In this document: one piece after another, positions 27,549 to 28,028 of the stretch
Layout: every line of letters starts with the position of its first letter
Position numbering within the stretch: the stretch's first letter is position 1
Source of the DNA: Pseudomonas phage SW_PA2862_11_24
DNA: 64,000 nt
Sequence record: PV574406.1
Reading direction: 5' to 3' (one strand)
Position numbers and translations under genes: made by a program
Notes under the pieces: model-generated
What the model was told of the DNA's origin: nothing
Database searches by the model: none
Seen by the model: the letters and a program-made list of their open reading frames with translations, nothing else

Positions 27549-28028
27549 TTACAGTTCGTAAACGTACACTTGGAACTGGCCCAGTGTCTCCTCGATAAGA
27601 GGCTCGACATTGCTCCAGTCCTCTCCGGCTAAACCGCATCCAATCTTCGGCAGACCTACACACAACTCCGAGGTAGGAATCGCCCGAGCGTCAGCCTCTG
27701 CCTCAAGGAACAGAGACATAGTGTACAAGGCTTGGCCCAGTGCGTCAAGCTGAGTGTAGACTCGACCCTCTTCTCGGCCATAGTTGTACTGTCCGTACAG
27801 ATTATAAATCGATCCGTACTCGTTCATTGTGAAGGTGAGGGAGCCGAGCTTTGCTCGGTCCCCTTTCTCCGTAGCTAGGTCCGCCTCGTAAGCTTCCGGG
27901 AATTGCTCCCGGATTTGCTTAGCAATGCCGCTGCCCATGGTGTTGAAGCAATTAGCCTGATGTGCAATAGCGTGCAACTCTTTGTTTTTGAACGCTGCGA
28001 TAAGATCGCCCTTTCGGTATTTAATCAT
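27549..28028 (-). CDS. Macro domain (ADP-ribose binding/hydrolase) protein
   Basis: HAIAHQANCFNTMGSGIA and LPKIGCGLAG motifs typical of macro/Appr-1-p processing domains. Confidence 0.7.
   Translation of the reverse strand: MIKYRKGDLIAAFKNKELHAIAHQANCFNTMGSGIAKQIREQFPEAYEADLATEKGDRAKLGSLTFTMNEYGSIYNLYGQYNYGREEGRVYTQLDALGQALYTMSLFLEAEADARAIPTSELCVGLPKIGCGLAGEDWSNVEPLIEETLGQFQVYVYEL

Follow-up and report, generated by a model that had tools for sequence, protein, structure and literature searches.

The window analysed here is a 64,000-nucleotide stretch of Pseudomonas phage SW_PA2862_11_24 (sequence record PV574406.1), and the subject of this study is a 159-amino-acid (aa) macro-domain protein that it encodes beside two genes of nicotinamide adenine dinucleotide (NAD+) metabolism. 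We found that the macro gene is probably the Pakpunavirus Adpp gene, encoding a single-domain phosphatase of ADP-ribose-1''-phosphate (ADPR-1''-P) that would feed NAD+ reconstitution pathway 1 (NARP1); this assignment draws on homology and gene context. The finding is not new: a published catalogue already contains the exact sequence.

The macro gene and its published counterparts

The RES-domain defence aRES splits NAD+ into nicotinamide and ADPR-1''-P, a product that Adps, the first enzyme of NARP1, cannot use (Osterman et al., bioRxiv 10.64898/2026.01.28.702374, January 2026). The same preprint showed that Adpp, the macro protein of Vibrio phage Gary (KNV71_gp137), turns this compound, there called ADPR-1P, into ADP-ribose (ADPR), and that Adps, Adpp and Namat, the set named NARP1-AP, together overcome aRES, all three genes being required. 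Its authors, who used HHpred, looked for macro proteins encoded no more than two genes away from those of NARP1, and 15% of phages with NARP1 have one at that distance from the operon (10.64898/2026.01.28.702374).

We then compared the window with these data. The exact 159-aa sequence is listed in Table S1 of 10.64898/2026.01.28.702374 as a NARP1-associated MACRO protein of HE983845 (C2-10_Ab1) and LN610575 (Ab08), where the neighbours are named as Namat HE983845_00020 and Adps HE983845_00022; Table S2 of the same work holds aRES homologues in Pseudomonas aeruginosa genomes. The macro protein and the assayed Gary Adpp are 41% identical over 153 aligned positions (E = 5e-31), and both fall in PHROG 335. 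They share a single macro domain of about 158 aa, the H-x-x-N-C, G-x-G and GCGLAG motifs, the Gln of the YGQ motif and a location within two genes of Adps and Namat. They differ in gene order, which is Adps-macro-Namat in Gary and Adps-orf-Namat-orf-macro here, and in host, Vibrio as against Pseudomonas. A paper on the related phage Adele had proposed that the Pakpunavirus macro protein frees ADP-ribose for NARP1 or counters ADP-ribosylating defences (PMC12846349).

An earlier reading made from the letters alone (the sequence-only reading) had suggested that the protein processes ADPR-type immune signals or products. For ADPR-1''-P, one of the substrates it named, Gary Adpp provides a precedent, and for cyclic ADPR (gcADPR) we found no evidence. 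As a whole that interpretation was broad and hedged; it is supported, and its substance had been published before (also PMC12846349).

The macro open reading frame (ORF) is real, far beyond chance. It begins with ATG, has GAGG 7 nt upstream of the start, and lies in a dense minus-strand gene block in which its start codon overlaps the stop of a small upstream ORF (ATGA). It matched PHROG 335, which is labelled 'phosphatase', at E = 5.9e-61. Against the Pfam Macro model it scored 21.1 bits, 0.9 bit below the gathering cut-off of 22 bits, and the gene is therefore missed by plain Pfam annotation. Among 5.8 billion proteins searched, 1090 were homologues at E <= 1e-3, and by tblastn 2975 of 50,697 phage records carried a member of the family. 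The window is a Pakpunavirus genome: over 26400-31500, identity reaches 99.9% with the Pakpunavirus members vB_PaeM_C2-10_Ab08 and Ab1, both Pseudomonas phages, and 91-94% with many further members of the genus. We rejected an overlapping 91-aa ORF with a GTG start (27388-27663): its match to a phage family (PHROG 6391) is confined to the last 49 aa, so the real gene there lies at about 27388-27537, without overlap with the macro gene. A promoter and terminator scan of 26000-33500 gave weak consensus matches only and did not define the operon boundary.

NARP1 as the neighbouring module and the proposed pathway

The sequence-only reading had placed the gene next to an NAD module, and this location was right. 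The module itself is NARP1 (Adps plus Namat), rather than NAMPT with a PRPP synthetase. The protein annotated in most records as a nicotinamide phosphoribosyltransferase matched the crystal structures 9W5X and 9W5W at 8e-113, compared with about 3e-48 for canonical NAMPT, and a canonical NAMPT plus PRPP synthetase (NARP2-like) module was rejected on these values. Both structures are of Namat, the nicotinamide ADP-ribose transferase of NARP1 (PMC12774641). The upstream enzyme, Adps, has a PRPP-synthetase-like fold and is annotated as a ribose-phosphate pyrophosphokinase; in Pfam it matched only Pribosyltran_N, the N-terminal Prs domain, and its TIGR01251 score of 112.8 bits is just under the 113-bit cut-off. 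No homologue of NMNAT, NADAR or SIR2 was found in the window, a further ground for rejecting a NARP2-like module. The Adele paper likewise identified the Pakpunavirus NAD genes as NARP1 (PMC12846349). Adps, Namat and the macro gene lie on one strand, each pair separated by a single small ORF (Table 1), which places the macro gene within two genes of Namat.

To examine this context across relatives, 80 IMG/VR loci encoding macro relatives were searched with the window's proteins, linkage being defined as a distance within 10 kb. Close homologues of both Adps and Namat were linked to the macro gene in 21 of the 80 loci. Three gene orders occurred among these NARP1-linked loci: Namat upstream of the macro gene, the macro gene ahead of Adps and Namat, and, in L073, Adps-macro-Namat. 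We placed 92 family members in a neighbour-joining tree. The clade that holds the window protein consists entirely of loci with Adps and Namat no more than 10 kb away, and further NARP1-linked members are scattered among unlinked ones in at least four other regions of the tree.

From this homology and gene context, we infer that the macro protein would act as an ADPR-1''-P phosphatase and would be used against aRES in P. aeruginosa. In the proposed pathway, host aRES would cleave NAD+ to nicotinamide and ADPR-1''-P, which is no substrate for Adps. The macro enzyme would strip the 1''-phosphate to give ADP-ribose, which Adps would pyrophosphorylate to ADP-ribose pyrophosphate (ADPR-PP). Namat would then couple ADPR-PP with nicotinamide, so that NAD+ would be restored and infection could proceed.

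Several observations weigh against this assignment. The assayed enzyme, Gary Adpp, is only 41% identical to the Pakpunavirus protein. By sequence, SCO6735, which removes ADP-ribose from DNA and protein, is closer (9.5e-11) than the phosphatase Poa1p (4.4e-6). PHROG 335 also holds T4 Tk.4/AdfM, whose phenotype is anti-DarTG2 and whose surroundings lack NARP1, and homologues 38-49% identical to the window protein stand beside NADAR in NARP2-type islands. In addition, NAD+ reportedly drops in cells infected with the related phage PaP1, even though it has these genes (PMC12846349).

Fold, active-site class and alternative roles

The sequence-only reading had identified a macro domain from two motifs and asked for a structure prediction and a check of the catalytic residues. 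Both motifs are present, HQANCFNTMGSGIA at residues 23-36 and GCGLAG at residues 130-135 (GCGLAGE at 130-136) of the translation, and the predicted structure bears the identification out. An AlphaFold2 model built from a 29-sequence alignment had a mean predicted local distance difference test score (pLDDT) of 96.4 and a predicted template modelling score (pTM) of 0.91, a confident macro fold. Foldseek searches of the PDB with this model returned TARG1 (3.7e-12), BT1257 and Poa1p (8.7e-12, template modelling (TM) scores 0.79-0.81) and the DarG macrodomains (5e-10 to 4e-9), all with a probability of 1.00 and with TM scores of 0.73-0.81 across TARG1, Poa1p and BT1257. MacroD2 matches reached TM scores of only 0.55-0.58 (E about 1e-5), and coronavirus macrodomains were also clearly weaker. 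Among solved structures, the best match by sequence was SCO6735 (PDB 5E3B) at 9.5e-11, followed by BT1257, DarG, Poa1p and TARG1. The PDB sequence search gave no MacroD match. A MacroD/YmdB-type O-acetyl-ADPR deacetylase, the name that JGI gives to many homologues, was rejected on the low MacroD2 TM scores and the lack of a MacroD sequence match.

The key residues of the macro protein are H23, N26, T30, G32-S33-G34, Q80 and G130-C-G-L-A-G135, and the residues invariant across the 29-sequence alignment include N26, G34, K60, N76, Y78, G79, Q80, G132 and G135. In SCO6735, Gln85 stands where TARG1 and DarG have their catalytic Lys, and activity requires this Gln (PMC9411070). The macro protein is a Gln-type member of the ALC1/TARG1/SCO6735-like macro class because Q80 sits at the position of Gln85 and because H23, N26 and the G32-G34 loop align with His23, Asn26 and the Gly loop of Poa1p, in which Ser30 takes the place of T30. 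The Adele paper notes the same pattern of Poa1p residues in its homologue (PMC12846349).

Each of the characterised enzymes resembles the macro protein in part. SCO6735 of Streptomyces coelicolor, an ALC1-like hydrolase, shares the Asn (N26 here), the catalytic Gln and a GCGLAGG loop, but is a cellular protein with a DNA-damage promoter and no NARP1 context, and acts on thymidine-ADPr DNA and Glu-ADPr protein. Yeast Poa1p (PDB 6LFQ), an ADP-ribose-1''-phosphate phosphatase, has the same fold and catalyses the reaction proposed here, but carries Ser at the Q80 position and acts downstream of Tpt1 in tRNA splicing. T4 AdfM (Tk.4) has the same size, single-domain architecture and Gln, but lies on a different tree branch without NARP genes nearby, and its assigned role is protection from DNA ADP-ribosylation. 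DarG and PhiKZ gp104 have an ALC1/TARG1-like macro fold, and gp104 is also in PHROG 335, but both carry a catalytic Lys (FPTK motif) in place of the Gln. RyDEP, an RyR-domain glycosidase of NARP1 operons, is likewise an accessory that converts a defence-made ADPR derivative to ADP-ribose for NAD+ resynthesis, but has an unrelated fold and uses 2'/3'cADPR instead of ADPR-1''-P (PMC13232231).

Reversal of DarT-type ADP-ribosylation had also been suggested by the sequence-only reading. There is a precedent for this in T4 Tk.4, and the DarG-type form of the idea does not hold. A DarG-like antitoxin was rejected on several grounds: Gln80 stands at the position of the catalytic Lys (Taq DarG K80, TARG1 K84; PMC9411070), the 159-aa protein is a single domain without the C-terminal DarT-binding domain of DarG, its NF048014 score is 45.4 bits against a cut-off of 250, and no darT or ADP-ribosyltransferase gene, such as adjoins darG, is annotated in the reference genome.

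An AdfM-type role, whether as the main function or as a second activity of one active site, appears unlikely. The macro domain would remove DarT2-made ADP-ribose from thymidine in single-stranded phage DNA, and the freed ADP-ribose would then be available to NARP1. T4 Tk.4 is 32% identical to the macro protein (E = 4e-23) and in the same PHROG; it is the single T4 gene needed against DarTG2, according to a transposon screen and a clean knockout, and was named AdfM (HIDEN-SEQ preprint 10.1101/2025.11.20.689424). SCO6735 cleaves thymidine-linked ADP-ribose on DNA through Gln85 (PMC9411070), and the invariant Q80 is present in both T4 Tk.4 and Gary Adpp, the surrounding motif being NLYGQ in the macro protein and NLYTQ in Tk.4. 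The sole NCBIfam match of the macro protein was antitoxin_DarG (6.5e-12), DarTG2 is present in clinical P. aeruginosa (PMC13309987), and in a related clade the macro gene directly follows a gene for NADAR, the domain of the anti-DarTG1 factor AdfN. The macro protein is nevertheless nearer to the assayed phosphatase than to T4 AdfM, and its whole clade is NARP1-linked whereas T4 tk.4 is not. Biochemical removal of ADP-ribose from DNA has not yet been reported for T4 AdfM (10.1101/2025.11.20.689424). The phage AdfM that has been tested biochemically, PhiKZ gp104, removes DarT2 marks from DNA, but is of the DarG-like Lys type and only 23% identical (PMC13309987). A literature search on DarTG restriction of Pakpunavirus found nothing useful. 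With the catalytic Gln of SCO6735 kept as Q80 and T4 Tk.4 in the same family, a second, anti-DarT activity is possible. We therefore tentatively consider a dual role, in which one active site may dephosphorylate aRES-made ADPR-1''-P and may also strip DarT2-made ADP-ribose from DNA thymidine, both products feeding Adps and Namat. The interleaving of NARP1-linked and unlinked members in the tree, the conserved Gln and the NADAR-macro pairing in the NARP2 island are compatible with this, and the 35% identity between Gary Adpp, a tested phosphatase, and T4 Tk.4, a tested anti-DarTG2 factor, also bears on it.

Hydrolysis of another ADP-ribose conjugate or signal (protein or RNA ADP-ribosylation, O-acetyl-ADPR or Thoeris-type cyclic ADPR), with the ADP-ribose recycled by NARP1, is improbable. 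TARG1/SCO6735-class macro enzymes do act on several substrates (PMC9411070), NARP1 operons recruit varied 'feeder' enzymes such as RyDEP for 2'/3'cADPR (PMC13232231), and Iyer et al. predicted soluble ADPr derivatives as targets of phage Macro domains (PMC9503650). However, cleavage of cyclic ADPR has not been shown for any PHROG 335-family homologue, the NARP1 partner known to degrade cADPR has an unrelated fold (PMC13232231), and MacroD-type deacetylases are much weaker structural matches. Less likely still is Poa1p-like housekeeping in RNA repair, in which the protein would clear ADPR-1''-P, or Appr>p derivatives, arising from Tpt1/KptA-type removal of a 2'-phosphate during tRNA repair by the neighbouring ligase and kinase. 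A block resembling RNA repair, with an AAA_33 kinase, an Rnl1-like RNA ligase and a metallophosphoesterase, does lie 3-6 kb upstream on the same strand, and structurally Poa1p matches well (Foldseek 8.7e-12, TM 0.81). However, RNA repair of the T4 type, carried out by Pnkp and Rnl1, produces no 2'-phosphate and does not depend on NAD+. The annotation of the closest reference genome, in which many genes are 'hypothetical' and were not individually profiled, includes neither KptA/Tpt1 nor a 2H phosphoesterase. When loci are rearranged, it is NARP1 that stays with the macro gene, and the RNA ligase is absent from the NARP1-linked loci L012, L017, L018, L021, L025 and L073. Adpp remains our preferred assignment for the macro protein.

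The surrounding island, related loci and meaning

The features around the macro gene are collected in Table 1.

Table 1. Features of the counter-defence island in the window, with the related large-phage loci
Feature	Position	Strand	Remark
DprA-like/SLOG-superfamily protein	26497-27078	minus	0.5 kb downstream of macro gene
Adpp-family macro-domain gene (putative ADPR-1''-P phosphatase)	27549..28028	minus	159-aa ORF, ATG start, stop codon included
Small ORF, PHROG 6997, 65-aa core	28025..28222	minus	between Namat and macro gene; stop overlaps macro start
Namat, nicotinamide ADP-ribose transferase, second NARP1 enzyme, 562 aa	28233..29921	minus	PDB match; PHROG 448 6.5e-194
Small ORF, PHROG 7663, 72 aa	29978..30196	minus	between Adps and Namat
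Adps, ADP-ribose pyrophosphate synthetase, first NARP1 enzyme, 291 aa	30193..31068	minus	PHROG 619 2.1e-95
AAA_33 kinase	31078-31494	minus	RNA-repair-like block
Rnl1-like RNA ligase	31505-32422	minus	RNA-repair-like block
Metallophosphoesterase	33363-33917	minus	RNA-repair-like block
HD-domain hydrolase	34338-34898	minus	RNA-repair-like block
Large-phage island clade loci	L044:5237-15179		also L026, L027, L030, L034, L038, L039, L045, L046, L048, L053, L057, L059, L068, L074

Both small ORFs are kept only in Pakpunavirus loci (5 of the 80 related loci), and the one of PHROG 6997 is translationally coupled to the macro gene through the ATGA overlap. Compared with the crystallised Namat 9W5X, the window Namat has an insertion of about 55 residues at positions 337-391 (GDVEVVESLEHWDIMDAVNGNDAFVLEFEDKYFKVIPTEWDQYEYVVGYKLEEVS...), with a break in the alignment between residues 319 and 325 of the chain. 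The DprA-like protein matched PHROG 768 at 7.7e-69 and Pfam DNA_processg_A weakly (2e-4), and a PDB sequence search with it gave a single match, LOG, at an insignificant E of 0.58. Of the 21 NARP1-linked loci, 14 have a homologue of it no further than 10 kb away. Processing of ADPR-derived signals by phage SLOG domains has been predicted, not demonstrated (PMC9503650), and the DprA-like gene could be a further accessory of the NARP1 island or could reflect mere synteny among related phages. The RNA-repair-like block spans 31078-34898 on the minus strand, just upstream of NARP1, and this block and NARP1-AP make up a counter-defence island. Elsewhere, the reference genome encodes another RNA ligase and a Pnkp.

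A different setting was observed in a clade of about 15 loci on large-phage contigs of up to 362 kb, in which the macro homologue lies in a conserved NAD/ADPR island and is 38-49% identical to the window protein. This island contains an NMNAT-Nudix protein, a canonical NAMPT (NAMPT_N 96.7 bits), SIR2 and a full Prs, and in 14 of these loci a NADAR gene stands directly upstream of the macro homologue. It is a NARP2-type setting, where ADP-ribose is no pathway substrate. The island thus pairs both domain types of the anti-DarT factors, NADAR as in AdfN and macro as in AdfM. Such NAD/ADPR neighbourhoods were described by Iyer et al. in 2022, computationally only (PMC9503650).

PHROG 335 covers the window gene as well as L002:4923-5390 and L003:12518-13006. 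Although annotated only as 'phosphatase', this family holds two experimentally assigned roles, Adpp (ADPR-1P phosphatase) and AdfM (anti-DarTG2), and its AdfM members are of two types, with Gln in T4 Tk.4 and Lys in PhiKZ gp104. Since PHROG 335 mixes the two roles, automatic annotation cannot separate these functions.

Depletion of NAD+ is a major bacterial anti-phage strategy, and Pakpunavirus members are leading therapy candidates against P. aeruginosa. The three-gene NARP1-AP set predicts which host defences are overridden, namely canonical NADases and aRES, a point that has already been published. Our additions are modest: the macro protein is placed in the Gln-type, SCO6735-like class and in a fully NARP1-linked clade, and one phage family is shown to hold both the Adpp and the T4 AdfM functions. 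The remaining point of some interest is that Adpp-type and AdfM-type activities may reside within one enzyme; if such a dual role is true, PHROG 335 would be a family of general 'C1''-erasers' and not two functional classes, Adpp and AdfM.

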